Source: Gammaproteobacteria bacterium
GTDB taxonomy: Bacteria; Pseudomonadota; Gammaproteobacteria; Pseudomonadales; Azotimanducaceae
Direction: 5' to 3'
Assembly: GCA_043719475.1 (NCBI GenBank)
Contig: JAYSTS010000293.1
Location: 5,140 to 69,139, forward strand
DNA length: 64,000 nucleotides
In this document: positions 5,103 to 64,000 of the stretch, one piece after another
Layout of the letters: the number at the start of each line of letters is the position of its first letter
Position numbering within the stretch: position 1 is the stretch's first letter
Notes under the pieces: generated by a model
The model's database searches: none
Seen by the model: only the letters and a program-made list of their open reading frames with translations
Told to the model about the DNA's origin: nothing
Translations under genes and position numbers: made by a program

Positions 5103-5108
5103 CCAGCC

Positions 5109-5570: not shown

Positions 5571-5578
5571 TCGAAAGT

Positions 5579-6525: not shown

Positions 6526-6657
6526 GGAATGTCGGATTCAGAAAAAGGCGGCGATTATAGCCACTGGCGGGCAACTCACACTCCGGGAATTTCGGCTCGA
6601 CCAAATTCTCAAGAACCTGGCTAAACCGGCACTAGTTATCTACGGACTGACACGACG

Positions 6658-7632
6658 ATGACCTACACACTTTTCGGCGGCGAACTGAGTCTTTTTACGC
6701 GCAAACTGGAAGCGGCGATGAAATTCACGGGTCTACCGTTTGATTGCGTTGACAAGAACCACGCGAACCGCGAACTCCTGGAACTTCGTTCCGGAACCCA
6801 TCAGGTACCCGTCCTGCAGACGCCAGAGAACTGGGTACTTGCGGATACCACACCCATCATCGAGCTGCTCGATTCACGGATCGGAACTCGTCGACTTTTT
6901 CCCGAGGGTGCGATGGGCGCACTGGTTCATGTGTTGGAAGAGCATTTCGATGAGTGGATCGCCCGGACTTTGGTGCACTACCGCTGGCATTACCCGGCAA
7001 GCGCTGATTTCGCCGCCTCACGAATGGCCAACGGTGACGAATCGATCGCCCGTCGAATGCTTGACTGGGGACCGCGTGCCTGTCGGGCAACGGGCACGGA
7101 ATCACTCCTTCAGCAACGCGCTGCCGAAGCCGAGTATGAACGAATGCTGGTTGCCGCTGAGGCGCAACTGACGCAGACCGCTTTCCTCCTGGGTGATCGC
7201 CCAACGGCTCTGGATTGCATCGTGCTCGGTGGGCTGCGCGCGCATACGAACATGGATCCGGACCCAAAACGAATCGTGGCGGGCTTCCCCACGGTACTCG
7301 ACTGGTGTGAACGACGAGCCGATACATGGGATGGGTACGGAGAGCTTGCGTCAATCGACGACCCGACAGACTTCGCCGTTCACACTCTGGAAGAAATGCA
7401 TTCAACCTATGTGCCGTACATGCAGGGCATGAGATCTGCCCTTGCCGCTGGAGCCAAGGCTTGTCAGCTTGAAATCTATGGCGAGACCGTCAGCTACCTG
7501 ACGCGGGCCTATCCCGAAAAGTCACGGAAAATGGTCTCAAACCGAATCGCGCGACTCACAGGAACCGCGCGCAAGGACGCCCATGCCTTTCTCGATCAAT
7601 GGAAACTCACGGAGGTATTTGGCGCCGACTGA
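6658..7632 (+). CDS. glutathione S-transferase family protein with C-terminal extension
   Basis: Thioredoxin-like N-domain (THQVPVLQTPENWVLADTTPIIELL) and a GST_C-like segment (FLLGDRPTALDCIVLGGL). About 100 extra C-terminal residues. Confidence 0.55.
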   Translation: MTYTLFGGELSLFTRKLEAAMKFTGLPFDCVDKNHANRELLELRSGTHQVPVLQTPENWVLADTTPIIELLDSRIGTRRLFPEGAMGALVHVLEEHFDEWIARTLVHYRWHYPASADFAASRMANGDESIARRMLDWGPRACRATGTESLLQQRAAEAEYERMLVAAEAQLTQTAFLLGDRPTALDCIVLGGLRAHTNMDPDPKRIVAGFPTVLDWCERRADTWDGYGELASIDDPTDFAVHTLEEMHSTYVPYMQGMRSALAAGAKACQLEIYGETVSYLTRAYPEKSRKMVSNRIARLTGTARKDAHAFLDQWKLTEVFGAD

Positions 7633-7747
7633 ACTGCTCCAGACCGGCTGTGAGACTCGCGTCAGTCTGGGATTCGGACCCATAGTGTAGAATTCCCGCC
7701 GCCAATCGCAGACCACTAATCAGTCTTCAACATGCTTGGGCTCAAGA

Positions 7748-9310
7748 ATGCAAACTATGCATAAGGTCAGTCTACTCGTCATCCTCGATGGTTTCGGGCA
7801 CCAGCAACCAGGTCCTGACAACGCGATCAGTCAGGCGGTCACTCCAAATCTGGATCGGCTTCATCGAGAGTACCCACACACGCTGATCTCCGGCAGCGGA
7901 CTGGATGTGGGACTGCCAGATGGCCAGATGGGCAACTCTGAAGTCGGTCATATGCACCTCGGTGCAGGACGCGTTGTCTATCAGGACTTCACTCGTATCA
8001 AACGCGCGGTCGAACAGAACGAACTGGCCCGCAATTACGCCTTCACCAACGCATTCAGCAAGTTGCACAAGACAGGTGGTGCGCTGCACGTGATGGGGTT
8101 GTTGTCATCGGGCGGTGTACACAGCCATGAGGCGCAGATTTTTGCTGCGCTCCGTATCGCTCGGGAAGCTGGCATTCAAAAGGTCTATCTGCACGCGTTT
8201 CTGGACGGAAGGGACACACCACCAAAAAGCGCGATGGAATCCTTGCTGGCCGCAGAGGAGCTATTTACCCAGATCGGAGGGGGCTCAGTCGCCAGCATTT
8301 GCGGCCGCTACTTCGCCATGGACCGCGACCAACGCTGGGATCGACAGGAGCGTGCGTACAATCTTCTGGTGCGTGGAGAAGCTCCGTTCCACGCTGCTAC
8401 CGCGAGCGCCGGACTTGAACTGGCATACGCACGCGGCGAGACAGATGAGTTTGTACAACCAACAGCAATACATGCCGCCGGCTCCTTGCCGATTCGCTTT
8501 GCGGATGGCGATGCCGTGCTGTTCATGAACTTTCGTGCAGACCGAGCACGACAGCTCACACGAGCGATCATTGATCCTGTATTCACGGGCTTCGAGCGTC
8601 GCAGCACTGTCAGACTCTGCGACTTCGTGATGTTGACGCGCTACGCAGACGATATCGATGCATCCTGTGCATTCGACACCCCACAGCTTCGCAACACGCT
8701 GGGTGAGTACCTCTCACATCTGCATAAACGACAACTGCGAGTCGCCGAAACGGAAAAATACGCGCACGTGACTTTCTTTTTTTCCGGCGGTCGAGAAGAG
8801 CCGTTCACAGGCGAAGATCGAATCCTTGTGCCATCGCCGAGGGTTGCCACCTATGACCTGCAACCAGAAATGAGTGCAAGCGCCGTCACTGACGCCCTGG
8901 TCAAGGCGATCAAGGATCAGCATTACGACGTCATCATCTGCAACTATGCCAATGGCGATATGGTTGGCCATACCGGAATAATGTCCGCCGCCGTGCTTGC
9001 CGTTGAAACACTGGACGCCTGCCTCGGACGATTGATGGAGGCAACCGAACAAGTGGGCGGGCAAATGCTCATCACGGCCGATCATGGCAACTGCGAACAA
9101 ATGATGGATCACGAGACAGGGCAACCGCATACCGCACACACCTGTGAACCGGTCCCATTGATCTACTTCGGCCCGACGTCACTGTCCATGGTGGCGGGAG
9201 GTTCCCTGCAGGACGTAGCTCCGACATTACTCAATCTGATGGGTATTGATGCGCCCGAGGAAATGACCGGGCGTTCGCTGGTCGAGATCCGCGCGCAGCG
9301 CAGCGCCTGA
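7748..9310 (+). CDS. gpmI: 2,3-bisphosphoglycerate-independent phosphoglycerate mutase
   Basis: LVILDGFGH, GNSEVGHMHLGAGR and ADHGNCEQM motifs. The start is ambiguous (7736, 7748 or 7757). Confidence 0.93.
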   Translation: MQTMHKVSLLVILDGFGHQQPGPDNAISQAVTPNLDRLHREYPHTLISGSGLDVGLPDGQMGNSEVGHMHLGAGRVVYQDFTRIKRAVEQNELARNYAFTNAFSKLHKTGGALHVMGLLSSGGVHSHEAQIFAALRIAREAGIQKVYLHAFLDGRDTPPKSAMESLLAAEELFTQIGGGSVASICGRYFAMDRDQRWDRQERAYNLLVRGEAPFHAATASAGLELAYARGETDEFVQPTAIHAAGSLPIRFADGDAVLFMNFRADRARQLTRAIIDPVFTGFERRSTVRLCDFVMLTRYADDIDASCAFDTPQLRNTLGEYLSHLHKRQLRVAETEKYAHVTFFFSGGREEPFTGEDRILVPSPRVATYDLQPEMSASAVTDALVKAIKDQHYDVIICNYANGDMVGHTGIMSAAVLAVETLDACLGRLMEATEQVGGQMLITADHGNCEQMMDHETGQPHTAHTCEPVPLIYFGPTSLSMVAGGSLQDVAPTLLNLMGIDAPEEMTGRSLVEIRAQRSA

Positions 9311-16742: not shown

Positions 16743-17006
16743 ATGATAACGTGCCGCAAGTACGGAACCTCTCTGGAGGGCCTGGATGTCCCGCCATTGC
16801 CAGGCAAACGTGGCGAAACCATCTTTGCGACCATTTCAAAACAGGCATGGACGGAGTGGCAGGCGCTGCAAACCACTCTCATCAACGAGAAGCACCTGCG
16901 GCTTATCGAGCCGGAAGCTAGACGCTATTTAAACGAGCAGATGGAGCGTTTCTTCAACAACGAGGGAACAGATGTTGCAGAGCACTTTGAGCCGAAAATC
17001 GAGTAA
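16743..17006 (+). CDS. yggX: Fe(2+)-trafficking / oxidative damage protection protein YggX
   Basis: MITCRKYGTSLEGLDVPPLPGKRGETIFATISKQAWTEWQ...INEKHL is YggX-like, immediately after mutY. Confidence 0.88.
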   Translation: MITCRKYGTSLEGLDVPPLPGKRGETIFATISKQAWTEWQALQTTLINEKHLRLIEPEARRYLNEQMERFFNNEGTDVAEHFEPKIE

Positions 17007-18486
17007 CCGAGCGGCCTGGTACGGGCTGACGTTCGTCTGTCTGCTGGCTGCCTGTACGACAATCGACGGCTACCGTGTACCACCGCTCCCCTCCACAGCA
17101 CCGTTTGCGGGCGCGACCGTCAACCCACGTTTGTACTACGTCGATAGTCTGATTCCGCGCAGCCCGTGTACAAACTACGATCCATCCACCCGCACCTGTA
17201 CTGCCGGTAGAGAGCTCGCATTCAGCGGTCTTGACGCTGCCAACAACATGGCCCAGGCAGGAGATGTGGTCGTGCTTCGCGGCGGACTTTACTCATCACC
17301 CATCCGACCCGCTGCTTCCGGCACCGCTCAAGCGCCGATTACATACCGCAGCCAGACGGGCGAAGTCGCCTCAATCTCTGTTCAGGATGAGCCTGCAATC
17401 CAGCTCAAGGGTGTACAGCACATCATCATATCCGGTCTCGTACTGCGCGACTCATTGGGGTGGGGACGACTAGAGGATGCTCACTACAATGTCATCTCCG
17501 CCAACAAATTCATTGAAGCGCTGGCACGTGGTACTACCGGTGGCCTAAAACTCGTCCGCAGTCACTTCAATCAGATCCAGAAGAACAGCTTCTATCGCGG
17601 CAACGACAGCATTGTCTTGCAGGAGTCCGATCACAATCTCGTTGCTTTCAATCACCTTGAGTTTGCACGTCACAGCCTGGTCAGCATCCGATGCAGCAAC
17701 TTCAACGTGATACGGGGCAACTACCTGCACAATGAGCGGCAAAAGGCCTCGGAAATCTACGACTGCGAGGGCATCAGCGATGCGCCGATGCGATTCGACG
17801 CAACCAAGCGCAATCTGTTCGAAGGAAACAACTTTGCCCACGTTACCGGATCAAGCCAGCCCGACAAGTACAACGGAATCCAGTACAGCCAACAACTGGG
17901 AATCGTGCGCAGCAATCTGTTTACCGACAACCAAGGTGGCGCCATTCACTTCGCGGTCTATGAACAGGAAGCTCTCTACAACTATGGCAATCGTGTCTAC
18001 GCCAACTGGTTTGTAGCCAATCGATGCCACGCCGTGAGTGGCTCGATCGGCACTCCACTAAGGGCCAACGACAATCGCGTATTCGGTAACCTTCTGGCAC
18101 GTAACACGGATTGTTACGGCAGCATCGACAACAAACCACGCGCGGCGATTTTCAGCAGCACGGAAAACGTCGACTCACCTTCGGGAGAAAACAATCTGCC
18201 CATCATCTGGCATGCCCGCACCCAGACCAGCGGCACCGGAAGGGTAGTAGAAATCAACGACGTTCTGCCATTCTTTGATGGTTTTGCCATACACGGTGAA
18301 ATCGGCGATGAACTTGAATTCGAAAATTCAGGCCAAACAGCGCGTCTACAACAAATCGACTACGCCGCAGGGACCTTGCAGCTTGATCGGGACATAAGCT
18401 GGACCGCCGGGGCGGGAATCCGAATCACTCGCCAGTCACTACCCGATCCCAGGAGTGCCTTGCCAAACCCGGCAATTCGCCACTAG
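16972..18486 (+). CDS. right-handed parallel beta-helix lipoprotein
   Basis: Lipobox LLAAC, then repeated PbH1-like turns (HYNVISANKF, FNQIQKNSF, HNLVAFNHL, NFNVIRGNYL). Confidence 0.6.
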   Translation: MLQSTLSRKSSNRAAWYGLTFVCLLAACTTIDGYRVPPLPSTAPFAGATVNPRLYYVDSLIPRSPCTNYDPSTRTCTAGRELAFSGLDAANNMAQAGDVVVLRGGLYSSPIRPAASGTAQAPITYRSQTGEVASISVQDEPAIQLKGVQHIIISGLVLRDSLGWGRLEDAHYNVISANKFIEALARGTTGGLKLVRSHFNQIQKNSFYRGNDSIVLQESDHNLVAFNHLEFARHSLVSIRCSNFNVIRGNYLHNERQKASEIYDCEGISDAPMRFDATKRNLFEGNNFAHVTGSSQPDKYNGIQYSQQLGIVRSNLFTDNQGGAIHFAVYEQEALYNYGNRVYANWFVANRCHAVSGSIGTPLRANDNRVFGNLLARNTDCYGSIDNKPRAAIFSSTENVDSPSGENNLPIIWHARTQTSGTGRVVEINDVLPFFDGFAIHGEIGDELEFENSGQTARLQQIDYAAGTLQLDRDISWTAGAGIRITRQSLPDPRSALPNPAIRH

Positions 18487-20324: not shown

Positions 20325-21251
20325 TTGTCACCAGACTGGCGCCTGATGCTTCCAGAACGCAAAGACCACATCGACGGGCTGGGTGCATCGCTCCTGATCG
20401 GTTTCAGCGCCATCCTTGGTCTTAATCAGGCACTGGTGAAGCTGGTCAACGCCGGCATGTCGCCCATGTTTCAATCAGGCTTGCGCAGTGCATGCGCTTT
20501 CGTAGTCGTGCTCCTGTGGACCCTCATTCTCCGCAAACAGCTGGATTTTCGCGGCGGCAGTGTCAAGTGGGGCATTTTGATGGGCGTTTTATTTGCGCTG
20601 GAGTTTGCGCTCCTGTTCATTGCGCTGGACTACACCACGGTCTCACGAGTATCACTGTTCTTCTACAGCATGCCGCTATTTACCACCATTGGTGCGCACT
20701 TCCTGATACCGGAAGAGCGCTTTCATCCCGGGAAACTGCTTGGTCTCGTCATCGCGTTCGCAGGCTTGTCGATAGGGCTCACTGACTCAGGTTCGCAACC
20801 ATCGGCCACTTCCTGGATCGGTGATGTTCTCGCTATTGCAGGGGCGATCTGCTGGTCGGCTATTGCACTGGGTATCCGCACCACCGTCCTGATCCAGCGT
20901 CCCGCAGAACAGGTCATGCTGTTCCAGCTTGGAGTCTCAGCGGTCCTTTTATTGGCTGTGGCCCCAGCTTTTGGTGACACGATACGCGACATGACGATCA
21001 CCATCGCCTGGATATTCGCGTTCCAGGTGATTGCCGTAGCCAGCATTGGTTATCTGCTCTGGGCACGCATCCTGGCCATCTATCCGGTAGGTAACATGGC
21101 TTCGTTCAGCTTGCTTGCACCGTTGTTCGGGGTGTTGTCGGGCTGGATGATCTTCGATGATCCATTGACCCCGCGTTTTGCAATTGCGTTGATCCTGGTG
21201 GGCGCCGGCCTGATTGTCATCAACCGCCGCGTCGTCGCAAGTCGATCGTGA
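20325..21251 (+). CDS. DMT (EamA-type) transporter
   Basis: About 10 predicted TM helices in two EamA-like halves. An alternative start is ATG 20346. Confidence 0.8.
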   Translation: MSPDWRLMLPERKDHIDGLGASLLIGFSAILGLNQALVKLVNAGMSPMFQSGLRSACAFVVVLLWTLILRKQLDFRGGSVKWGILMGVLFALEFALLFIALDYTTVSRVSLFFYSMPLFTTIGAHFLIPEERFHPGKLLGLVIAFAGLSIGLTDSGSQPSATSWIGDVLAIAGAICWSAIALGIRTTVLIQRPAEQVMLFQLGVSAVLLLAVAPAFGDTIRDMTITIAWIFAFQVIAVASIGYLLWARILAIYPVGNMASFSLLAPLFGVLSGWMIFDDPLTPRFAIALILVGAGLIVINRRVVASRS

Positions 21252-24200
21252 ACGGCAGATCAGGATGTACTCGCTCAGGCGTCAGGGTAATTCGCCCCTG
21301 AGTGCCTCCATGCGCGTGGAATCGAGCGCCACGTCGCGCCTCTGCTTCATTTGCATTCAACGGAAAGGTTGAGTAGTTGCGTCCGCCTGGATGCGTGACG
21401 TGATACACACCGCCGCCAATTGATCGCTCGTTGGCGACGTCAATCAGGTCGAATACCAATGGACCATGCACATCGATCGTCGAGTGCATGCTCGAAGGGG
21501 GATTCCACGCCTTGTATCGGACTCCTGCCACATATGTGCCCTGCTCTCCCGTTGCATGCAATGGTACCTGTCGACCATTGCAGCTCACTGCATATCGGTC
21601 ACCGGGCAGTCCACGCACCAGCACCTGCACTCGTTCGACCGATGAATCCACATACCGGGCTGTTCCCTGTCCGGTACTCTCCTCACCGAGGACGTGCCAT
21701 GGCTCCAGCGCCGAATGCAGTTCGAGCGACATGCCTCGCGCTTCGATCCGGCCAATAAACGGAAAGCGGAACTCGAGGAAAGGCAGAAACCATTCCGCTT
21801 CGAAGGCGTAGCCGGCTCGCTGCATACTGCGCAGAACATCCTCGAAGTCTTGCCAGACAAAGTGCCGAAGCATGAATCGGTCGTGGAGATCAGTTCCCCA
21901 CCGGATCATGGGTGCCTTGTAGGGTTTGTTCCAGAAACGCGCAACCAGTGCACGAATGAGCAGCATCTGCGCTGTGCTCATGTGCGCATGTGGCGGCATC
22001 TCGAACGCCCGAAACTCAACGAGACCGCGTCGACCACCAGCGCTGTCCGGTGAATACAACTTGTCGATGCAGAACTCGGATCGATGCGTATTGCCGGTCA
22101 AATCAACGAGGAAGTTGCGCAGAACCCGGTCAACGATCCAGGGTCGGTCAGTGTCACCTTCCGGTAGTTGATCGAGCGCAATCTCCAGCTCGTAGAGGTG
22201 ATCGTCGCGCGCTTCATCGACTCTTGGCGCCTGACTGGTCGGCCCGATGAACAACCCGGAAAAGAGGTAGGACAGGCTTGGGTGTCGCTGCCAGAATCGC
22301 AGCAGACTGCCCAGCAATTCCGGTCGGCGCAAGAACGGACTGTCTTCTGGTTTGGCGCCACCCAGCGTGACATGGTTTCCCCCGCCGGTACCCGTATGCC
22401 GGCCATCCAGCATGAATTTTTCTGTTCCCAGCCGCGTGAGTCTGGCCTGCGCGTACAGCTCTTCAGTGTTCGTAACAAGCTCACGGAAACTCGTCACTGG
22501 CGGCACGTTCACTTCGATCACACCAGGATCCGGTGTGATCTGCAGTACTCTCAATCGATGATCCTTGGGCGGCTCATATCCTTCGAGCGTCACGCCTAAC
22601 TTCATGCGGCGTGCTACATCGCCGATGGCATCAACAACCGCAAGGTAACTTTCCAGACGCTTGATAGGCGGCATGAATACGTACAGCTTGCCGCCTCGAG
22701 CCTCAATGACCAGCGCCGTGTGGATTATTTCTCGTTGATCACTTGAGACGGCTTCCGCATCCTGTTCGCCTGCAGCGGGTAGTTCTTCCCTAGGCGAAAA
22801 AGGATCAACGGCCGCCTCCACCTCACGCTCATCGGGCTCAACCCACGGCAATGAGGCGAGTGGCAATCGCAGCCCCATTGGCGAGTCTCCCGGCAACAGC
22901 AACATCGCGCCCGAGCGAAATCGCCATTCGCTCGTCAGCCACCCGCCATGACGGCCCTTCGCCTGCCACTTGAGTGGCAGCGCATAACCTACAGGCGTTG
23001 TGAGTCCCGTCGTGAATATTCGGGCCAGTCGCTCGCGCTCCAGCGGATCATCAAGACGTGAATCAGTAGGCGAGACATTTTCGGGCAGCTGTTGTTCCTT
23101 GATGAGATTCTGGAACACATCTTCATAGCCTGGAAAAATGTGTTTTTCACTCAGCTTGAGTTTGTGTGCAACCCCGGCCATCAGAGCTCTGCAATGACTG
23201 GCATCAAACGGCCCCGGAACTTCATCGCCGGACAAAACGCCTGGATGTTTCACCAATGGCTTGCCATCGGTTCGCCAGTACACCGACATCACCCAGCGCG
23301 GTAATGGCTCTCCGGGATACCACTTCCCTTGCCCACGATGAACCAGGCCAGTTGGCGCATAACATGCCCGCAGACGATCAAGCAATGCTGCGCTTAACGC
23401 ATGCTTCGATTCCGACAGGGCTGTGAAATTCCACTCCGGCCCCTCCATATCGTCAATGGAAACGAAGGTAGGTTCGCCGCCCATGGTCAACCGGACGTCA
23501 CCGCGCTCAAGATCTCGATCAACCTTGTCGCCGAGTTTGAGTACACGTTTCCATGCCGGGATCGAAAAAGGCAGGGTGACGCGAGGATCTTCATGGATGC
23601 GAATCACTTCATTGCTGAACGAGAAATCGACACTGGTTGGACCGGTCGACCCGGTTACCGGAGCGGCACTGGCCGGGTCCGGGGTACACGCCAGCGGGAT
23701 GTGGCCTTCACCCGCCATGAGACCGGACGTCGGATCCAGACCAATCCAGCCTGCTCCGGGCAGATAGACCTCTGCCCAGGCGTGCAGATCAGTGAAGTCG
23801 TGGGTCGTTCCCGACGGGCCATCCAGCGCCTCGAAATCGGCTTTCAGCTGGACCAGATAACCGGAGACAAATCGCGCTGCCAGACCGAGGTGGCGCAGTA
23901 TCTGAACCAACAGCCACCCGCTGTCCCGGCACGATCCTGATCGCCGGCCCAACGTGTCCTCGCAGCTCTGGACACCCGGCTCCATGCGAACAAGATAGTC
24001 GACGTCTTTTTGCAATCGTTGATTGAGCGCGACCAGAAAGTCAACGGTGCGGGCATCCTTCGTGTCCACCGCAGCCAGCCACGCGGTAAGTTTTGGGCCA
24101 CGTTCTGCGACCTCGAGGTACGGTGTCAGATCCCGGTGAAGCTGGGGCTCGTAAGCGAAAGGAAACTTCTCGACACCTTCATCCAGAAAAAAATCGAATG

Positions 24201-24468
24201 GATTGATCACCGTCAAATCAGCAATCAACGAAACCTCGATGCTCAACTCGGTGGCCGGATCCGGAAACACGAACCGGGCGAGGTAGTTTCCAAACGGATC
24301 CTGCTGCCAATTCACAAAGTGCGGTTCCGGTGTCACCTTGAGTGAATAGGCAGAGATCGGCGTGCGGCAATGTGGAGCTGGTCGGAGGCGTATCACGTGG
24401 GGGAACAATTCCACCCTGCGATCAAAACGGTAGGTGGTTTTGTGTCCGAGAGAAACGTGAATGGTCAC
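21220..24468 (-). CDS. transglutaminase-like / DUF2126 large protein
   Basis: 1082 aa. N-terminal TYRFDRRVELFPHVIRLRPAPH (Bact_transglu_N-like), a transglutaminase core (SGSCRDSGWL...HAWAEVYLPGAGWIGLDPT) and a long DUF2126-type C-terminus. GTG start overlaps the Anbu stop (GTGA). Confidence 0.88.
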   Translation of the reverse strand: MTIHVSLGHKTTYRFDRRVELFPHVIRLRPAPHCRTPISAYSLKVTPEPHFVNWQQDPFGNYLARFVFPDPATELSIEVSLIADLTVINPFDFFLDEGVEKFPFAYEPQLHRDLTPYLEVAERGPKLTAWLAAVDTKDARTVDFLVALNQRLQKDVDYLVRMEPGVQSCEDTLGRRSGSCRDSGWLLVQILRHLGLAARFVSGYLVQLKADFEALDGPSGTTHDFTDLHAWAEVYLPGAGWIGLDPTSGLMAGEGHIPLACTPDPASAAPVTGSTGPTSVDFSFSNEVIRIHEDPRVTLPFSIPAWKRVLKLGDKVDRDLERGDVRLTMGGEPTFVSIDDMEGPEWNFTALSESKHALSAALLDRLRACYAPTGLVHRGQGKWYPGEPLPRWVMSVYWRTDGKPLVKHPGVLSGDEVPGPFDASHCRALMAGVAHKLKLSEKHIFPGYEDVFQNLIKEQQLPENVSPTDSRLDDPLERERLARIFTTGLTTPVGYALPLKWQAKGRHGGWLTSEWRFRSGAMLLLPGDSPMGLRLPLASLPWVEPDEREVEAAVDPFSPREELPAAGEQDAEAVSSDQREIIHTALVIEARGGKLYVFMPPIKRLESYLAVVDAIGDVARRMKLGVTLEGYEPPKDHRLRVLQITPDPGVIEVNVPPVTSFRELVTNTEELYAQARLTRLGTEKFMLDGRHTGTGGGNHVTLGGAKPEDSPFLRRPELLGSLLRFWQRHPSLSYLFSGLFIGPTSQAPRVDEARDDHLYELEIALDQLPEGDTDRPWIVDRVLRNFLVDLTGNTHRSEFCIDKLYSPDSAGGRRGLVEFRAFEMPPHAHMSTAQMLLIRALVARFWNKPYKAPMIRWGTDLHDRFMLRHFVWQDFEDVLRSMQRAGYAFEAEWFLPFLEFRFPFIGRIEARGMSLELHSALEPWHVLGEESTGQGTARYVDSSVERVQVLVRGLPGDRYAVSCNGRQVPLHATGEQGTYVAGVRYKAWNPPSSMHSTIDVHGPLVFDLIDVANERSIGGGVYHVTHPGGRNYSTFPLNANEAEARRGARFHAHGGTQGRITLTPERVHPDLPFTIDLRRRGG

Positions 24469-27808: not shown

Positions 27809-27884
<76 letters not shown>

Positions 27885-56661: not shown

Positions 56662-57120
56662 ATGAAGCCGAGATGGTCCTTACTTGTTGGAGCAGCGGTA
56701 ATGGCGGGTGTCGGGGTTTTTCTGTTCAGTTTCATGACAAGCGATCAGGGACATCGCATCCGTTCCGGAGACTCGCCGAAAGAAGCCATACATCCAGAGG
56801 AGCCGATACAGCATTCGCACCCACCGGTGAGAGAAGAAATGTCGATCGTTCCTGGCATCACAGACCATCCGCAGAGTGATGCTGGTGACGGCGGAACAAC
56901 TGCAGACGCAACCGGCTTGTTCGTCGAGAACAGGACGCCGTTCAATGTTGGCGCGACGTCGATCCACCCGGATGATGCTGATCCGGATGAAGCCGATTCG
57001 GAAGTTGTACACGACGTTGGCGGTCGTCTCGAAAACCCACTGCAAGAGGTGCAGGTACACAGTGGAGAACCGGTGCGCGATATCGGCCCGCACGTGGACC
57101 CGATGAATACTTCCGAATAG
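56662..57120 (+). CDS. hypothetical membrane-anchored acidic protein
   Basis: AGGAG-like RBS, an N-terminal TM helix (LLVGAAVMAGVGVFLFSF), then a D/E/P/H-rich low-complexity tail. The competing minus-strand ORFs look non-coding (R/C-rich). Confidence 0.35.
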   Translation: MKPRWSLLVGAAVMAGVGVFLFSFMTSDQGHRIRSGDSPKEAIHPEEPIQHSHPPVREEMSIVPGITDHPQSDAGDGGTTADATGLFVENRTPFNVGATSIHPDDADPDEADSEVVHDVGGRLENPLQEVQVHSGEPVRDIGPHVDPMNTSE

Positions 57121-57268: not shown

Positions 57269-57631
57269 ATGTCTAGCACTCTGCGCCGGGTTTTGTGCGC
57301 CTTGGCTATTTACCTGCCGATAATGTCGACAACCGCATTGGCGGATCGTGCAACGATCGTAGCGAATCCGGTACGCATACTTGTTTCAGAAAATACGTTT
57401 GGTGGCTGTATGGTGCAGCTCAGCGTTGATCCACAATCGATGCTGCCTAACTGCGGCTCGGCGTGGGTGACGATGAGCTGCGATGGAACTTTCATGCCGA
57501 AGGATGTTTCCGACCGGTTGCTCGAACAGGCACAAATGGCGTTCGCGCTTGACAAGGGACTCTCGGTCTACATAGACGACTCCCGACGACACAATGGATA
57601 TTGCCTCGCCTATCGCGTCGACATCTGGTAG
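57269..57631 (+). CDS. small secreted cysteine-containing hypothetical protein
   Basis: AAGGAG RBS 8 nt upstream, signal peptide MSSTLRRVLCALAIYLPIMSTTALA, and 4 Cys in the ~95-aa mature part. It ends 10 nt before the giant ORF opens. Confidence 0.55.
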   Translation: MSSTLRRVLCALAIYLPIMSTTALADRATIVANPVRILVSENTFGGCMVQLSVDPQSMLPNCGSAWVTMSCDGTFMPKDVSDRLLEQAQMAFALDKGLSVYIDDSRRHNGYCLAYRVDIW

Positions 57632-57641
57632 CGACGGCTGA

Positions 57642-60600
57642 GTGGATTCGCCAACCGTGCGACAACTTCGACGGATTCTTCTGACCGGATTTTTGTGCCT
57701 GCTGGCACTTCTAGCTGGCAGCGTAGTTTACCTGCGAACATATTCAGTTCCCTTGGCAGCGGTACCACGACCCTTGATTTCCGCCGTGCAGTGGGCAGGA
57801 GGGGCGATCACGTTGCCCATCCGGAAAGATCTGGACACCACCAGGCGGGTGGGGCGGGTCAAGCCACCCTTTGTAGAAGGCCAATTGCTGGTTCAGCTGC
57901 AGTCTGGCACCACCGCTGTTCAGCGAGATCAGCTGATCGCCCTTCTCGGCGGCAAGCTCCTTGAGACATTTCAGGATCGTGACGGTCTTTTCCTCATAGA
58001 GCTTGGACGTGGCCTGTCAGTCACAGAAGGTGTCCGCCTCTTGAAGGCGTCTGCCGGGGTTGAACACACCGGCCCCAATCATCTCTACTACCTCGACGCA
58101 CTGCCGAACGACATGTTCTTCCGCGATCAATGGGGCCTGCACACGGGCAGCTCGACAGACCCCAAAGACCCCGACCTGGATGCAGTGGAGGTATGGGACA
58201 CTTACACCGGTAGTGACACTGCAGTGATCGGTGTGGTTGACAGCGGGGTCGACTACCGCCACATCGACCTGGCCGGAAACATGTGGGTGAACAGTCAGGA
58301 AATTTCCGGCAACGCACTGGATGACGATCGCAATGGTTATGTCGATGATGTTCACGGCATTGATGCGATCGACCGGACCGGTGATCCATTAGACGACGAA
58401 GGACACGGCACCCATGTGGCGGGAACAATTGGCGCGGTAGGCAACAATGGCCTAGGTGTGTCTGGTGTGGCGTGGACAACCCGTATCGCCGCGTGCAGGT
58501 TCCTGGACCGCAGCGGTGCGGGAACGGAAGCGGATGCAATCCGTTGTTTTGACTACTTCTCGGCGCTCAAGGCGCGTGGCGTCAACGTGGTCGCCATCAA
58601 CGCGTCGTGGGGGAGTGAACGCAATTCAGTGCCGCTGAGTGATGCCATCGACCGTCTTCGACAGCGAGGCGTCGTGGTCGTGGCCGCCGCCGGGAACGAC
58701 GGCGTGAATACCGACCAGCGTCCCCACTATCCTTCCGCATACCCCCTCTCCAACATTGTCTCCGTGGGCTCCATTGGCCGCGGTGGCCAGTTGTCCTCGT
58801 TCTCGAATACCGGCGCGCTGTCAGTCGATCTGTTCGCCCCGGGCGAGGAGATCCTGAGCACCCGGCCAGGTGATGCGCTCGCCATCCAGAGTGGCACGTC
58901 CATGGCAACGCCACATGTGACCGGCATGATCGGTCTACTGGCCTCTGAAGATTCGACGTTGACAGCGAATAATCTGATCAGCCACGTCATCGCTACGGTG
59001 ACACCCGTCGATGCCTTGCGCGCCCGCTCAGTCAGCGGAGGCATTGCTCATCTCCAGTTGCCAGACAGAGATCGTGACGCTGACGGCATGGATGACCGTT
59101 GGGAACGGCGATATGGCCTCAATCCGGTAGATGGTACAGATGGCACGCGAGATCCTGATGGTGACGGTCTCGACAACCTCCGCGAGTTTCGCGCCGGAAC
59201 CTCGCCGATCAGCGCTGATACGGATAGTGATGGTCTTTCCGATCGGCGCGAGATCGTCGATCTCGGCAGCAATCCGCTGCTTGCAGACACGGATGGTGAT
59301 GGCCTAACGGACCTGCGGGAAACGGAAATCGGCACCCGGCCCATCGATGCCGACAGCGATGACGATGGTCTGAGTGACGGCGACGAGCTGGCTTCACCGG
59401 ATTCGGATCCGCTGCGTGCCGATACGGATGGCGATGGCATGGGTGACGGATTTGAACGCAGGCATCGTCTCAACCCACGTGATGGCGCGGATGCTACGCA
59501 AGATATCGATGGTGATGGCCTGGACAATCGTGCTGAAGCCGGCGCGGGTACGAATCCGAGATCCCGGGATTCCGACGCAGACGACTTGTCTGATTTCGAT
59601 GAACTGCGGAATTATTCGACACAACCGATGAATCCCGATTCCGATGCGGATGGCATGGGTGACGGCTGGGAAGTGCGTTACGCGTTCAACCCCTTGTCAG
59701 CAAGTGATGGCAGCCAGGACGCCGATGGTGATGGTGCTCTCAATCGCGAGGAATTTGCGGCAGGCAGTGATCCCCGGGATGCAGGCTCCAGACCACCCAG
59801 CAGACCCTGGTCAGGACTTCTCGGTAATGCGGCTCGAACCGGCCACGTGCCCGTCGCGACGCCAGGCGGGATGGTGGAACAGCGCTGGTCCAGGGCTGCA
59901 GACAATTCGGTGACTGGCGAATCGGTGACCATTGGCGGAGGTCTCGTGCTCGACGTGCGCTCGTTTGCGCCTTCAGCCGGGGTCATCGCGCGGAGTCTTC
60001 TGGATGGCAGCGAGCAATGGCGGTATGAACATCCTGACTCGGTCATGGCGGTACAACCTGTCATCAGCCGAAACCGGATCATCGCCGCATTCAAGAATTC
60101 ATTCGGCGGATTCTCACTGGTTGGCTTCGATCTCGCGGGCAAGGTCGAGTACGTGCGCAATCTGGGCCAGATCGACAGCGCGGAATACAACAGCCGATTG
60201 ATGGTGATCGACAACCAGGGCTTCTTCTCTGCCGGCACCTCGCTGATTGCGTTTACCGCATCCACCGGCGTGCAGGAATGGCGTCAGGAAGTACCAAGCG
60301 CCTCCACGTTCCTGCAACCGAGGTGGGTGGCGGCGGCCAGCAGAAACCAGGTGGGCGTCTTCAGCAATCAGACACTCCATCTCTACGGCCGCGCCAACGG
60401 TGCTCTGCAGACCCAGATCGGTTACAGCGACTGCGGTCGCGGCGAAGATTCGACGGTGTTCTTCGATGCTGTCGGTGAACCCTACCTGCATTTGCCCGGG
60501 TGTATCGCACGATTCGACGTAGCGAATCGCCGTGTTCGATGGGTGCGAACCGATGTCGCGCAGGCGTTCAGGCCTACTGTGGCAGGAGAAACCATCATCG

Positions 60601-63600
60601 CGGAACAGCAGGGATATGCCATCGTCGGCATCAATACCGCGGACGGTTCGAATCGCTGGACCTGGGATTCGGGGAGTTACATCAACGCCGAACCCGTTTC
60701 TTCGAGCACCCATTTTTTCGTCTCGGAATCCGGGCGAACACTGGCAATGGCGTTCGCCGATCGCAGCATCAGCTGGCAACTGCCTCAGGCCGGTCAGATG
60801 GCGTTTAGCGACGACGGGGTTTTTGTATTGCGCGACTCGCTCGGGTTGTCTCTGTTCAACCTGGATGGCGACCTCGACGGTGATGGGCTGCCGGACTGGT
60901 GGGAGCGGGCTTTCCGGCTGTCCGTGACCAATCCCGCCGATGCGGGCGCGGACGCAGATGCGGACGGTCTCAGCAACCTCGACGAATTCCGCGCGCGTTC
61001 ACATCCGCGCAATGCGGACACCGACGGTGACGGTGCAGACGACGGTGCAGAGCGCAGCGCCGGCACCAATCCGGTCGAGCCCGATACCGACGGTGACGGA
61101 CTACGTGATGGTGCCGAGATCAACCAGTATCGGAGCAATCCGGTCCTGACCGATTCCGATAGCGACCAAGTCTCCGATGGCGAAGAAGTCAATCGCCACC
61201 GGACCGATCCGAACGATTCGGCGAGCAAGCCGGATTTCATTTTTAGCGCGAACCATTCATTCGAGACGGAGTTGCCTTCGGACTGGCGTAATGATCCGTC
61301 ATCCGGTGGTAACTGGCGCCGGAGTACGTCCCAGGCAAGCGATGGGCAATACGCACTGGAGGCGATGCAAACGCCAGGTCGGATAGGCGTTCGCATTGAA
61401 TGGCGCGGAAGATTTGCCAAGGGTGAACTGGTGTTTGATCTGCTCCTGCCGAACACGATCTCTTCATTTGTAATCACTGCAAATGACAGCGAACGGATCC
61501 TCTATGTGCCGGGCGGCACAGCCGGCTGGCAGACCTTTCGTGTAGCCATTCGGGAAGGTGTAACGTCGATCAGTTTTGAGGCCGCGGATGGCAGCCCGGC
61601 AGAAGGGAGACCTGCAGGTTTTCTGGACAACATTCGGTTCAGAAAGCCCGTGCCGTTTGGACTGAGTGGTGACAACCTCATCGTTCGGGCGAACGGGATG
61701 CTGCACGAATACACTGCGGACGGGCGGGCCGTGCGGGCACCGGTACCGCAGCCTGAAGGAACAAGCAGCACCTCGGTCGCGACCACCACGCGGCACGAAG
61801 TGGTTGTTCGCGACTACCGTGTGTGGCACTTCTACAACCCGATAAACGACTCTTGGCGGAAGGTTGACGACCAGGTCGCCGACGTATTCGGTTCGCCGGT
61901 CGCGACCCCGGATTCACTGCTCATGGCAGGACGGGGCGGTCGCATCGTGCGTTATGACCTGAACGGCCAGTTTCGGCAGCTGGCAGGCGACCCTGGCACG
62001 ACAGCACACGTCACCTACGGTGCAGATGGATACGTCTACACAAACGACTACTTCGGTGTGGTTCGCCGATATGACCCTGTTCGTTATCAGCTGCAGGCCG
62101 AGATATCACTCGGGATCGATTTTCGCGGCCCTCTCGCCGTTGACGCGGACGGGAGAATTCTCGTCCGACATCAGTCCGGTATCAGCCGTTTCGATTCGAC
62201 CGGGCAGCCACTTGCCGAGGTGTCCGAGAACAGCACCATTGGCGCAGAGCATCTCCTGATCGACCTCAGGCAGCGAATCATCCTCCCCTCATCCGCGTCG
62301 TTCAGTGTAGTTGCGAAAGACCTGTCGAGCTCCCGCAACGTAACACTCGACAACGGCCTTCCCTCCTGGGCCCTGATTGGCGTCACCCAGTTCCTTCGAG
62401 GCGGCGCAGACACCGATCTCGATGGCTGTGCAGACTGGTGGGAACTCTCCTACGGATTGTTGCCATTCCAGCGAGCGGATGGAGCAGCGGATCCGGATGC
62501 GGACGGGTTGCCTAATTCGGGCGAATGTGCGGCGGGAGCCAATCCCCGAGTTGCTGATTCCGACGGTGATGGCCTGACGGATCGTGATGAGGTCACACTG
62601 GGCAGCAATCCAGCTGAAACCGATTCGGATGACGATGGCCTGTCCGACTCTGACGAGCGCAGTCGGGGGACGTCTCCGGTGCGGGCGGACACCGACGCCG
62701 ATGGCCTGACTGATCCGGATGAGATCAATCGAACCGGCACCAATCCGATCAACGCCGATACGGACCGGGACGGCATGCCGGACGGTTTTGAAGAACGGGA
62801 GGGTCTGAATCCCCGCGATCCAGCGGACGGTGCCCGGGACACCGATGGAGACGGTCTTGTAACTTCTGAAGAGTTCAGACGCGGCACTTCGTTCCGTCTG
62901 GCCGATACCGATCGGGATGGCCTCGCGGATGGCGAAGAGCTGAGACGTGGAACCGGGCCTCTGCAACGGGATACCGACGCTGATCTCCTCCCCGACGGTT
63001 TTGAAGTTGCCAACGGTTTCAATCCGCTGCTGGCGGATGATGCAAACCTCGACAGTGACGGCGATGGCTTCAGCAATCTTGTAGAAGCGCGCTACACGGC
63101 GAATCCACGAACCGGCACCAGTACACCAAGACCTGGTGCGTGGACCGGAGAGCAGGGCGATGCCACGCATCGGGGTTTTGCCCCGGTGCGTATCGACACC
63201 TCGAGACTCGCCCGTCGCTGGGTGTTGCGCCCGGATGGGCAGTCGGAGGAACGGTTGAATCCGATGGCGGTGGGACATGGAAAGCTGTATGCAACCTATT
63301 ACCCCTCCTCCAGCGGAATCGGGAGCATTGTCGCCTTGAACGCAGTGACGGGTCAGCGGCTCTGGCGCAATCAGGTCGCAGATGCGACTGCGCTGGGCCC
63401 GCCCTCTCTCAATCGCCTGCGTATCGCCGTTGCTGCAGCGTTGCCGGGCAACGTTTCCGCGGTGCTCGCCATCGATGGCGCAACCGGATCGACAAGGTGG
63501 CAAACGGAGTCGTTCGGAACAGCAGACCAGCTGATGCCGATGGCCGTAGATGCGCCCTGGGTGGTTGGCCGGCTCGGGAATTCCAATCCATTCGGTGCCA

Positions 63601-64000
63601 TCGACGAAGCAACCGGACGCAACCTGTGGTTCACGACGATCCGACCATCCTCGGGAACAAGCGCCATCGTGAATGCGGATCGTGTCATTCTTTTCTCGGA
63701 ACCTGGCGCCAACCGTCCTTCGGGATTGACGGTTCTGGACGCCGCATCGGGAACACAGCGGCAGTTCATCAGCGATGCTCGAAATGAGGGTTTCGCCGCA
63801 ACGCCGATCCTCGGTTTCGAGGATGACGTATTTGTGGTGAGGCAACAGAGTCTGAAATCCATTGACCTCGGCGCCAGCCGGATTCGGTGGCGGACAGCAG
63901 GCTCGTTCGCCACCCTCTCGCCGGCGCTCGGCGCCGGCATGGTCTTCGCAATCGAATCGGGTGCGCTGGTTGCGTTTGATGAGCGCACCGGCCTGGAAAT
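57642..64000 (+). CDS. giant secreted S8 subtilase with TSP3 calcium-binding repeats and beta-propeller modules (3' partial, runs off window)
   Basis: The frame is open from the TGA at 57639 to the window end (>2100 codons), with GTG starts at 57642 and 57657. It has a signal anchor and an I9-like propeptide. The catalytic triad codons are Asp 58239 (VVDSGVD), His 58404 (GHGTHVAG) and Ser 58899 (SGTSMATPHV). The ORF track omits it because it has no stop in the window. Confidence 0.9.
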   Translation, partial: MDSPTVRQLRRILLTGFLCLLALLAGSVVYLRTYSVPLAAVPRPLISAVQWAGGAITLPIRKDLDTTRRVGRVKPPFVEGQLLVQLQSGTTAVQRDQLIALLGGKLLETFQDRDGLFLIELGRGLSVTEGVRLLKASAGVEHTGPNHLYYLDALPNDMFFRDQWGLHTGSSTDPKDPDLDAVEVWDTYTGSDTAVIGVVDSGVDYRHIDLAGNMWVNSQEISGNALDDDRNGYVDDVHGIDAIDRTGDPLDDEGHGTHVAGTIGAVGNNGLGVSGVAWTTRIAACRFLDRSGAGTEADAIRCFDYFSALKARGVNVVAINASWGSERNSVPLSDAIDRLRQRGVVVVAAAGNDGVNTDQRPHYPSAYPLSNIVSVGSIGRGGQLSSFSNTGALSVDLFAPGEEILSTRPGDALAIQSGTSMATPHVTGMIGLLASEDSTLTANNLISHVIATVTPVDALRARSVSGGIAHLQLPDRDRDADGMDDRWERRYGLNPVDGTDGTRDPDGDGLDNLREFRAGTSPISADTDSDGLSDRREIVDLGSNPLLADTDGDGLTDLRETEIGTRPIDADSDDDGLSDGDELASPDSDPLRADTDGDGMGDGFERRHRLNPRDGADATQDIDGDGLDNRAEAGAGTNPRSRDSDADDLSDFDELRNYSTQPMNPDSDADGMGDGWEVRYAFNPLSASDGSQDADGDGALNREEFAAGSDPRDAGSRPPSRPWSGLLGNAARTGHVPVATPGGMVEQRWSRAADNSVTGESVTIGGGLVLDVRSFAPSAGVIARSLLDGSEQWRYEHPDSVMAVQPVISRNRIIAAFKNSFGGFSLVGFDLAGKVEYVRNLGQIDSAEYNSRLMVIDNQGFFSAGTSLIAFTASTGVQEWRQEVPSASTFLQPRWVAAASRNQVGVFSNQTLHLYGRANGALQTQIGYSDCGRGEDSTVFFDAVGEPYLHLPGCIARFDVANRRVRWVRTDVAQAFRPTVAGETIIAEQQGYAIVGINTADGSNRWTWDSGSYINAEPVSSSTHFFVSESGRTLAMAFADRSISWQLPQAGQMAFSDDGVFVLRDSLGLSLFNLDGDLDGDGLPDWWERAFRLSVTNPADAGADADADGLSNLDEFRARSHPRNADTDGDGADDGAERSAGTNPVEPDTDGDGLRDGAEINQYRSNPVLTDSDSDQVSDGEEVNRHRTDPNDSASKPDFIFSANHSFETELPSDWRNDPSSGGNWRRSTSQASDGQYALEAMQTPGRIGVRIEWRGRFAKGELVFDLLLPNTISSFVITANDSERILYVPGGTAGWQTFRVAIREGVTSISFEAADGSPAEGRPAGFLDNIRFRKPVPFGLSGDNLIVRANGMLHEYTADGRAVRAPVPQPEGTSSTSVATTTRHEVVVRDYRVWHFYNPINDSWRKVDDQVADVFGSPVATPDSLLMAGRGGRIVRYDLNGQFRQLAGDPGTTAHVTYGADGYVYTNDYFGVVRRYDPVRYQLQAEISLGIDFRGPLAVDADGRILVRHQSGISRFDSTGQPLAEVSENSTIGAEHLLIDLRQRIILPSSASFSVVAKDLSSSRNVTLDNGLPSWALIGVTQFLRGGADTDLDGCADWWELSYGLLPFQRADGAADPDADGLPNSGECAAGANPRVADSDGDGLTDRDEVTLGSNPAETDSDDDGLSDSDERSRGTSPVRADTDADGLTDPDEINRTGTNPINADTDRDGMPDGFEEREGLNPRDPADGARDTDGDGLVTSEEFRRGTSFRLADTDRDGLADGEELRRGTGPLQRDTDADLLPDGFEVANGFNPLLADDANLDSDGDGFSNLVEARYTANPRTGTSTPRPGAWTGEQGDATHRGFAPVRIDTSRLARRWVLRPDGQSEERLNPMAVGHGKLYATYYPSSSGIGSIVALNAVTGQRLWRNQVADATALGPPSLNRLRIAVAAALPGNVSAVLAIDGATGSTRWQTESFGTADQLMPMAVDAPWVVGRLGNSNPFGAIDEATGRNLWFTTIRPSSGTSAIVNADRVILFSEPGANRPSGLTVLDAASGTQRQFISDARNEGFAATPILGFEDDVFVVRQQSLKSIDLGASRIRWRTAGSFATLSPALGAGMVFAIESGALVAFDERTGLE
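59063..59785 (+). repeat. TSP3-type (DxDxDGxxDxxE) calcium-binding repeat block 1, coding
   Basis: About 9 units, such as DPDGDGLDNLREF, DTDSDGLSDRRE, DTDGDGLTDLRE, DSDDDGLSDGDE and DTDGDGMGDGFE. Confidence 0.85.
60861..61220 (+). repeat. TSP3-type repeat block 2, coding
   Basis: DGDLDGDGLPDWWE, DADADGLSNLDEF, DTDGDGADDGAE, DTDGDGLRDGAE and DSDSDQVSDGEE. Confidence 0.85.
62404..63110 (+). repeat. TSP3-type repeat block 3, coding
   Basis: DTDLDGCADWWE, DPDADGLPNSGE, DSDGDGLTDRDE, DSDDDGLSDSDE, DTDADGLTDPDE, DTDRDGMPDGFE, DTDGDGLVTSEE, DTDRDGLADGEE and DSDGDGFSNLVE. Confidence 0.85.

Follow-up and report, generated by a model that had tools for sequence, protein, structure and literature searches.

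A giant deseasin-type subtilase with a conserved scaffold of TSP3 repeats and beta-propellers in an uncultured gammaproteobacterium

The end of the 64,000-nucleotide stretch of gammaproteobacterial DNA analyzed here (the window) raises a twofold question: does it encode a single giant protein, and what would such a protein do? The original prediction described a plus-strand frame that stays open from position 57642 to the window end, over more than 2,100 codons. Retranslation bore this out, as 57642-64000 comprises 2,119 codons with zero stops, and every peptide string quoted in the prediction was found in the translation. A TGA (57639-57641) closes the frame immediately 5′; translation could begin as early as GTG 57642, and the database entry places it at GTG 57657. 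A public protein, P0001, is 100% identical to the product and begins with MRQLRR, corresponding to 57657. Because P0001 is 2,299 amino acids (aa) long, the gene (57642..64000, plus strand) continues for 185 codons beyond the window end; the protein thus extends past the window, as had been expected, and its C terminus could be read from P0001. The frame was also said to have been missed by the ORF track. It is indeed absent from the list, but only because ORFs running off the end of the source are excluded, a listing convention in which biology is not involved.

Long frames in Asp/Gly-rich repeat regions call for caution, since such regions are prone to misassembly and can yield long antisense ORFs; here, the minus strand carries several ORFs, which reach 518 aa. 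The frame might be a decaying pseudogene or a product of repeat misassembly; alternatively, the true genes might be those on the minus strand. However, at a G+C content of ∼60% the estimated stop rate of a random frame is ∼0.03 per codon, which puts the chance of a 2,119-codon open run at ∼1e-30. Tandem Repeats Finder reported just three short arrays (∼2 copies, 23 to 36 nt), none with the TSP3 period. The codon-position G+C of the frame (0.66/0.51/0.64) follows the pattern of neighboring genes, such as the AsnB gene (0.61/0.47/0.60), and full-length relatives at 34 to 84% identity keep the catalytic residues invariant and the module lengths nearly identical. The minus-strand ORFs had been described as mirror images of the Asp/Gly-rich repeats; this fits, in that the composition of the antisense ORF at 62289-63845 is that of a shadow of Asp/Gly-rich coding sequence, but this ORF is Arg/Gly/Ile-rich and not R/S/P-rich as proposed. 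A nonfunctional frame is therefore scarcely credible. The giant frame is a real gene, already machine annotated, and encodes an intact, presumably exported pre-pro-subtilase of an uncultured gammaproteobacterium, whose GlnA has its nearest matches in MAG proteins labeled “Pseudomonadales bacterium.”

The protein opens with a predicted export signal or signal anchor (57657..57734, plus strand), in which MRQLRR precedes 20 hydrophobic residues; all family members likewise have a basic N terminus ahead of a hydrophobic segment. The N-terminal segment of the giant protein has no obvious Ala-x-Ala signal-peptidase site, and the export and release steps proposed below are assumed for this reason. 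An N-terminal propeptide is present (57861..58079, plus strand), as predicted, but its Pfam match is to the fervidolysin N-pro-like family (PF22148; 25.7 bits, cutoff 21, E = 1.6e-5) and not to Inhibitor_I9 itself, which it had been likened to. By analogy, this propeptide would serve as an intramolecular chaperone.

The S8 catalytic domain (58104..59042, plus strand) is of the deseasin type. It belongs to the S8 family by its match to Pfam Peptidase_S8 (PF00082; 169.8 bits, cutoff 21.8, E = 1.1e-49), and the intact Asp/His/Ser triad of the original prediction was confirmed: catalytic D195, H250, and S415, in DSG, HGTH, and GTSMA motifs, and oxyanion N315 (P0001 numbering) are invariant across 17 protein clusters of relatives. 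By far the best PDB match is 3vv3, deseasin MCP-01, at 302 bits (E about 4e-89 to 8e-89); the next subtilisin scores 139 bits. The alignment with the mature deseasin chain begins at residue 150 of the giant protein, and the two catalytic domains are ∼55% identical over 312 aa, the whole mature domain, as counted from the alignment. Of the globular modules, the catalytic domain is the most conserved: leaving aside the close relative P0002, family members show 42 to 63% identity in it, versus 17 to 40% in the propellers.

Four TSP3 blocks with 10, 5, 10, and 4 repeats (27 strict motifs in the full protein) follow, identified as bacterial TSP3 repeats by TSP3_bac (PF18884; 147.4 bits, cutoff 25). 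The motif positions support the three blocks predicted within the window, all on the plus strand: block 1 (59070..59771) has 10 repeats of the DxDxDGxxDxxE type (motifs at residues 472 to 688; PF18884), block 2 (60870..61226) has four strict repeats and one degenerate repeat (residues 1072 to 1143), and block 3 (62409..63101) has nine strict repeats and one degenerate repeat (residues 1585 to 1799). Blocks 1 and 3 are 50% identical over 240 aa. In all relatives, block 1 measures 247 to 249 aa and block 2 measures 124 to 126 aa. To judge from the motif, the blocks would bind calcium.

The two predicted PQQ/BamB-like propellers are likewise recovered by Pfam, in which PQQ_2, a generic propeller family, scores 88.4 bits over the window part (cutoff 27.6). 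Propeller 1 (59793..60860, plus strand, ∼355 aa; PF13360, 48.5 bits when scanned alone) and propeller 2 (63123..64000, plus strand; PF13360, 77.8 bits), which is cut by the window end and runs to about residue 2186 of P0001, are homologous to each other (19% identity, E = 7e-8). Matches to PF01011, the PQQ enzyme repeat (E = 0.0086 for the whole protein and 2.7e-5 for propeller 2 alone), might suggest that they are PQQ-dependent quinoprotein dehydrogenase domains and that the protein is a fused protease-oxidoreductase. Yet these matches fall below the gathering score (15.2 and 23.5 bits versus 26.7) and cover 18 residues of a 595-position model, whereas the true match is PQQ_2, a cofactor-less BamB-type propeller; the acido-empty-quinoprotein and BamB equivalog models score far below cutoff. 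The size of ∼355 aa, moreover, fits BamB and not the quinoprotein dehydrogenases (∼600 aa), making a fused oxidoreductase very improbable. Identity with BamB was itself rejected (TIGR03300, 43.5 bits versus a cutoff of 285.2; PRK11138, 24.4 versus 423). The propellers resemble the eight-bladed BamB type in domain size and in exceeding the PQQ_2 gathering score, but BamB is an outer-membrane lipoprotein, and here they form part of a giant protein that is predicted to be secreted.

A beta-sandwich and a further propeller-like region had also been proposed, and a confident AlphaFold model of the pair (pLDDT 88.6) contains both, with NHL, Kelch, and WD40 propellers as the best fold matches of the latter. 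The sandwich (61233..61691, plus strand; model residues 14 to 145, pLDDT ∼85 to 94) is modeled as all-beta and has no family assignment; a sequence search of the PDB gave no match, and a MAM domain was considered and dismissed (PF00629, 13.9 bits versus a cutoff of 26.4, E = 0.05, 28 residues only). Of 12 distant relatives tested, all but P0007 and P0016 have a second sandwich copy near residues 2330 to 2470. The middle propeller (61692..62402, plus strand) is predicted to be six-bladed and NHL-like, with ∼22 to 24 strands (model residues 157 to 393, pLDDT ∼90). Its best Foldseek matches were Brat/TRIM2 NHL, Keap1 Kelch, and WDR5 (target TM 0.53 to 0.61), with the Brat and TRIM2 NHL domains at 0.53 to 0.55. 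In Pfam, no NHL sequence family matched this region, only Kelch_6 at E = 0.1; the modeled resemblance to NHL is one of fold, not of family membership.

How might such a protein be retained at, or released from, the cell? Beyond the window, P0001 completes propeller 2, continues with TSP3 block 4, and closes with a Cys-x4-Cys tail of 34 residues, which ends ...CRSIECVMVRDSFSLPVLKRARQVQGG and has no hydrophobic helix. The suggested search for a C-terminal secretion or sorting domain was run on this sequence, and no model matched: T9SS CTD, PEP-CTERM, MYXO-CTERM, autotransporter, and RTX/T1SS models found nothing in the last 232 residues (Pfam and NCBIfam, E ≤ 1; T1SS is poorly modeled), and neither did GlyGly-CTERM (TIGR03501), whether the tail was scanned at E ≤ 10 or the 232 residues at E ≤ 1. 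The matches in these 232 residues were to TSP3, PQQ_2/BamB-type propellers, and, below threshold, unrelated families (E ≥ 0.0001). The tails of most of the distant relatives, on the other hand, show a Gly run, then a hydrophobic stretch, and then basic residues; TIGR03501 passes its cutoff of 15.5 bits in P0006 and P0013 (17.0 and 15.7 bits), and three further relatives score just 12.7 to 15.4 bits. Neither the window protein nor any of the four relatives closest to it has such a GlyGly-CTERM-like tail.

In tail type, most of the distant relatives resemble the GlyGly-CTERM/rhombosortase proteases, such as Vibrio cholerae VesB and the Shewanella S8 enzymes. VesB is a trypsin-like protease, much smaller than the giant protein and devoid of a TSP3 or propeller scaffold; once it has passed through type II secretion, its tail leads to lipid anchoring at the cell surface, a step that depends on rhombosortase. 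Without GlyGly-CTERM, VesB, which the study calls only a “serine protease,” is no longer retained on the surface and leaves through the T2SS (PMC6219818). The GlyGly-CTERM proteins of Shewanella include S8 proteases (PMC3237569).

The architecture had been called unusual. It is rare but not unique, for 17 protein clusters at 34 to 84% identity show nearly the same module order and lengths throughout, and wherever a cluster is named, the name is “S8 family serine peptidase.” Such conservation over this range of divergence argues for selection on the entire architecture. Most of the distant members add the second sandwich, extra TSP3 repeats, and the GlyGly-CTERM-like tail, all absent from the window clade. 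Just 10 to 25 nt upstream of the giant gene lies a gene for a small secreted protein of 120 aa with four invariant Cys (57269..57631, plus strand), which matched no known family or structure. It directly precedes the giant gene in L001, L007, L008, and L015, at 61 to 67% identity, and was found in 5/5 loci of the Cys-tail type and 0/3 loci of the GlyGly-CTERM type; its association with the window clade is a single phylogenetic event. We consider it a probable operon partner. Gene neighborhoods otherwise differ among relatives, so genomic context offers no functional hint, and no linked secretion-system or rhombosortase genes were found in any locus examined.

Accounting for 80% of the protein, the scaffold has a strictly conserved geometry and also exists without a protease. 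P0106 (“PQQ-binding-like beta-propeller repeat protein” of Thalassotalea psychrophila) and P0112 lack the S8 domain and differ in their N-terminal part of 1,100 to 1,200 residues, but they align with residues 454 to 1724 of the giant protein (∼28% identity) in the same order, TSP3-propeller-TSP3-sandwich-propeller-TSP3, and the scaffold therefore works as an independent unit. Hence, the protein might be mainly a surface or matrix adhesin for cell-cell or cell-polysaccharide cohesion, similar to Myxococcus TSP3-repeat proteins, with an S8 domain that processes only the protein itself or its matrix partners and plays no part in nutrition. The top NCBIfam repeat matches are indeed the gliding adhesin CglD and the cohesion protein MtsD, exported proteins with PF18884 arrays of DxDxDGxxDxxE calcium-type repeats, as in the giant protein, but at ∼122 bits they score far under their cutoffs of 400 and 800; the TSP3 repeats are the sole source of these scores, and the proteins are not relatives beyond them. 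Similarly, although the small and giant genes directly follow a polysaccharide-biosynthesis cluster in the window, this link is not seen in the loci of relatives. Since the catalytic domain is also the best-conserved globular module and is closest to an enzyme that degrades bulk protein, we regard a mainly adhesive role as unlikely.

Instead, the protein is probably an extracellular, calcium-stabilized deseasin-type protease for particulate or surface-bound protein that is held on its substrate by the scaffold and is released rather than lipid anchored. MCP-01, a collagenolytic S8 protease of the deep-sea sediment bacterium Pseudoalteromonas sp. SM9913, has the same pre-pro-subtilase layout and is likewise a secreted enzyme of a marine gammaproteobacterium. 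Both proteins have a C-terminal noncatalytic extension; that of MCP-01 binds its insoluble substrate, with the PKD domain binding and swelling collagen (PMC11294657). The extensions differ in that MCP-01 has P-proprotein and one PKD domain, whereas in the giant protein TSP3 arrays, three propellers, and a sandwich make up 1,830 residues, and no PKD, PPC, or P_proprotein was detected (Pfam, window part and C-terminal 232 residues). Collagenolysis cannot be inferred from 55% identity to MCP-01.

We propose that the protein would be exported by Sec via its basic/hydrophobic N-terminal segment. Subtilase biology and the deseasin alignment suggest that the fervidolysin-type propeptide would then fold the catalytic domain, followed by an autocatalytic cut near residues 147 to 150; the same cut would detach the protein from a signal anchor, if there is one. 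With intact Asp/His/Asn/Ser residues, the S8 domain is predicted to be an active protease. The 1,830-residue extension may act as a calcium-stiffened reach-and-bind scaffold in which the four TSP3 arrays, with ∼29 DxDxDG sites, would serve as spacers and the two BamB-like propellers of eight-blade size, the beta-sandwich, and the six-bladed NHL-like propeller as ligand-binding modules, keeping the enzyme attached to insoluble protein, to detritus, or to surface polymers, much as the PKD domain does for MCP-01. The window clade appears to have lost the second sandwich and the final TSP3 repeats along with the GlyGly-CTERM-like tail; its enzyme is therefore probably released or held only noncovalently, possibly aided by the co-encoded 4-Cys protein. 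The design is rare but conserved in uncultured marine-type Gammaproteobacteria, a variation on a familiar theme.

Translation of the plus strand from 57642 to 64000 yielded 2119 codons with zero stops, as the original prediction had claimed, and all of the peptide strings that it quoted were found in this frame. A TGA at 57639 to 57641 directly precedes the open frame. The G+C content around the gene is ∼60%, and a stop-free run of this length would be estimated to arise by chance in random sequence with a probability of ∼1e-30. That the frame had been "missed" by the ORF track is a matter of listing convention and not a finding; it is absent only because ORFs left open at an end of the source are not listed. 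The G+C contents at the three codon positions of the giant frame are 0.66/0.51/0.64, the same pattern as in the adjoining AsnB gene. Tandem Repeats Finder reported only three short arrays (about two copies each, 23 to 36 nt), and the TSP3 period was seen in none of them; therefore, the TSP3 blocks are unlikely to have been misassembled through their repeats. The antisense ORF of 518 aa is rich in Arg, Gly, and Ile, the composition that the opposite strand of Asp/Gly-rich coding DNA should have, which agrees with the earlier dismissal of the minus-strand ORFs as artifacts. Because the codon-position, tandem-repeat, and antisense-composition results all support it, we read the plus-strand frame as coding.

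The full-length product is available as a public protein, P0001 (2299 aa; NCBI source, 79.8-kb contig), which is 100% identical to the window frame. It starts at GTG 57657 (residue i lies at window nucleotide 57657+3(i-1)), and its last 185 residues reach beyond the window. We read these residues from P0001 and from an 84%-identical relative at locus L015 of another genome, where a convergent putA follows the giant gene. In this stretch, propeller 2 is completed, a fourth block of TSP3 repeats follows, and the protein closes with a tail of 34 residues, ...DPLDASCRSIECVMVRDSFSLPVLKRARQVQGG. The original prediction had proposed a look for a C-terminal sorting domain; models of sorting and secretion domains were run against the tail and the last 232 residues of P0001, and none matched.

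All modules are encoded on the plus strand and are given in P0001 numbering. A basic/hydrophobic export segment (residues 1 to 26, by sequence reading) is followed by a fervidolysin-type propeptide (69 to 141; Pfam match) and the S8 catalytic domain (150 to 462; PF00082, 169.8 bits). The scaffold begins with TSP3 block 1 (472 to 705; 10 repeats by motif positions), a PQQ_2/BamB-type propeller 1 (713 to 1068; 48.5 bits), and TSP3 block 2 (1072 to 1190; 5 repeats by motif positions). It continues with a beta-sandwich (1193 to 1345), a six-bladed NHL-like propeller (1346 to 1582), and TSP3 block 3 (1585 to 1815; 10 repeats by motif positions), and it ends with PQQ_2 propeller 2 (1823 to 2186; 77.8 bits), TSP3 block 4 (2188 to 2265; 4 repeats by motifs and Pfam scan in P0001), and a Cys-x4-Cys tail read in P0001 (2266 to 2299). 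In all, there are about 29 TSP3 calcium motifs, three propellers, and one sandwich. TSP3 blocks 1 and 3 share 50% identity over 240 aa, and PQQ_2 propellers 1 and 2 are distantly homologous to each other.

The sandwich and the NHL-like propeller had been described as a beta-sandwich and a further propeller-like region. A single AlphaFold model of both, built from a 14-sequence family alignment, reached a pLDDT of 88.6 and a pTM of 0.84, and the best PDB fold matches of this joint model (the NHL domains of Brat and TRIM2, the Kelch domain of Keap1, and WDR5; target TM 0.53 to 0.61) bear out the propeller. Sequence searches assigned no family to the sandwich, with MAM at E 0.05 only and no PDB sequence match. 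The active site is intact and the catalytic domain is of the deseasin type: its best solved relative is deseasin MCP-01 of Pseudoalteromonas sp. SM9913 (PDB 3vv3; E 4e-89, ∼55% identity over 312 residues), with other subtilisins far behind among PDB matches. By sequence comparison of this domain, the protein is a member of the S8 family, deseasin group, but the C-terminal deseasin domains are missing. Altogether, the earlier interpretation of a protease joined to a repeat and propeller scaffold is supported.

The protein is one of a family of 17 protein clusters (P0001 to P0018 minus P0012). They align end to end at 34 to 84% identity; D195, H250, N315, and S415 are invariant, and module lengths are practically equal in every member, so that the architecture is conserved in both order and length. 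Named members are annotated as "S8 family serine peptidase" (a Woeseiaceae bacterium MAG; Proteobacteria bacterium 005FR1) or "subtilisin family serine protease/BamB." Outside this alignment, most scaffold modules align twice in P0012 (2983 aa), and P0106 (Thalassotalea psychrophila) and P0112 have a TSP3-propeller-sandwich-propeller scaffold without the S8 domain. Among the protein-search matches, giant S8 peptidases are common, and their extensions vary.

The members differ at the C terminus, which is 200 to 480 residues longer in the distant ones. A second sandwich copy was found in 10 of the 12 distant members tested (the exceptions are P0007 and P0016), and further TSP3 repeats continue the tails of the eight inspected by eye. 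A Gly run lies near the C terminus in 11 of 12 and is followed in about 11, often behind a Pro-rich linker, by a hydrophobic stretch and basic residues, P0011 being the exception. Two of these tails reach the cutoff of TIGR03501 (GlyGly-CTERM), and three more fall just short. In the window's clade (P0001 to P0005), block 4 stops after four repeats, the conserved Cys-x4-Cys tail closes the protein, and there is no C-terminal sorting signal; this clade is apparently truncated relative to the longer family plan. Because the distant members add a second sandwich, TSP3 repeats, and GlyGly-CTERM-like tails, the ancestral plan looks like an S8 domain with two copies of [TSP3(10)-propeller-TSP3(5)-sandwich], followed by terminal TSP3 repeats and a GlyGly-CTERM-like sorting tail, with the NHL-like propeller inserted behind the first copy.

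Immediately upstream, at 57269 to 57631 on the plus strand, lies a gene for a small secreted protein of 120 aa with a signal peptide, four invariant Cys, and a DDSRRHNGYC motif. It lies 10 to 25 nt upstream of the giant gene and is the sole constant neighbor of the latter among the lineages compared. It is present at all five distinct loci of the tail type, in which the giant protein lacks a GlyGly-CTERM-like end (61 to 88% identity; counterparts at L001 8310 to 8678, L007 2 to 499, L008 1 to 261, and L015 1791 to 2153), and at none of three GlyGly-CTERM-type loci. The association of the two genes is real and, because it traces to one clade, counts as a single evolutionary event. The small protein belongs to a family of 645 representatives at E<=1e-3, ∼120 aa long (nearly all 115 to 126 aa), that has no match in Pfam, NCBIfam, or PDB; with a profile of 42 sequences, no chain in PDB came up at E<=10. 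NCBIfam searches with the 42 sequences gave single-member noise matches only, such as Stx1B at E 0.008 in 1 of 42. We thus rejected both an SSI-type subtilisin inhibitor and an AB5-toxin B subunit. The AlphaFold model (pLDDT 46) is unusable. No S8 domain was found around six distant relatives of the small protein in other genomes (up to 9 kb on each side for four, less at L009 and L012), and a general link between its family and subtilases was rejected. At L012, from Gammaproteobacteria MAG HyVt-441, a distant relative (3848 to 4192) comes after a giant transglutaminase/DUF6531 protein and before a 693-aa protein (4592 to 6670) that combines TSP3 repeats with a He_PIG Ig domain and a prenyltransferase-like toroid. 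Here the small protein is paired with a TSP3 protein for a second time, and independently.

Neighborhoods of the giant gene differ between all lineages compared, and no secretion, sortase, or sorting genes were found near it at any locus examined. In the window, a polysaccharide (O-antigen or EPS-like) biosynthesis cluster at 34061 to 55922 ends shortly before the gene pair, an adjacency not seen at the relatives' loci. It encodes an NDP-sugar dehydrogenase, a GFO/IDH oxidoreductase, an aminotransferase, UDP-GlcNAc 2-epimerase, and an epimerase; a flippase, GT4 and GT2 glycosyltransferases, two PP-loop amidotransferase-like proteins, and AsnB; and an AMP-binding enzyme, an MBOAT acyltransferase, and an FMN-reductase-like protein. 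A 152-aa plus-strand ORF at 56662 to 57120, which has a hydrophobic segment at its N terminus and matches no Pfam family, is not certain to be coding, and similar-sized ORFs overlap on both strands; at L015, a gene of equal length (1183 to 1641) takes the corresponding place upstream of the small gene. Elsewhere, the window carries glnA (318 to 1727), ntrC (3600 to 5099), gpmI (7736 to 9307), and tRNA-Phe (27809 to 27884), a 504-aa right-handed beta-helix/NosD-like protein without an NCBIfam name (16972 to 18483, plus strand), and a 1082-aa protein with a transglutaminase-like N terminus and a full-length DUF2126 putative amidoligase domain (21220 to 24468, minus strand; 1248 bits). GlnA shares 97% identity with an NCBI protein and 88% and 80% with proteins under the name of "Pseudomonadales bacterium" MAGs; these identities place the window in an uncultured gammaproteobacterium.

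In the reading that we favor, the giant protease would be exported by Sec and would fold with the help of its propeptide. Autocleavage near residues 147 to 150 would also free it from any signal anchor, and its secretion would be of type II. [quoted passage not shown] The enzyme of the window's clade would probably be released into the medium, because the Vibrio cholerae protease VesB stripped of its GlyGly-CTERM is released rather than retained at the surface (PMC6219818).

Rival readings are less probable. A nongene or artifact, to which the minus-strand ORFs might have pointed, has practically no probability given the coding signals of the frame. A PQQ-enzyme fusion is very improbable; Pfam and NCBIfam scans led us to reject a PQQ-dehydrogenase reading of the propellers, and the protein is neither a quinoprotein dehydrogenase nor BamB. 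An adhesin or matrix role, with the protease serving self-processing, we consider unlikely. In another reading, the family is a distinct "protease on a calcium-stiffened stalk," whose fixed module lengths set its reach from the cell surface, and the window's clade has swapped a GlyGly-CTERM lipid anchor for a new two-component system, in which the Cys-x4-Cys tail and a cotranscribed small 4-Cys protein dock, retain, or regulate the enzyme; we offer this as a long shot.

For a specialist, the gene is no surprise: it is an automatically annotated S8 peptidase of recognizable parts, and GlyGly-CTERM cargo is known to include S8 proteases (PMC3237569). The giant protein itself is not a GlyGly-CTERM protein, but most of its distant relatives resemble one. 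Our literature search found no paper describing the S8-TSP3-propeller architecture, in which a deseasin-type catalytic domain is joined to a calcium-repeat and propeller scaffold where PKD or PPC domains would be usual. Large S8 proteases of multidomain build are regarded as leading degraders of particulate protein, both in marine sediments and on particles. Three features deserve note: a scaffold of fixed length, an anchor that has been lost, and a small protein from the same operon. The relatives offer a natural comparison of surface-anchored (GlyGly-CTERM-like) and probably released versions of one enzyme, and, should the scaffold with its fixed length or the small partner protein turn out to matter for function, a new way of positioning extracellular enzymes would be added.
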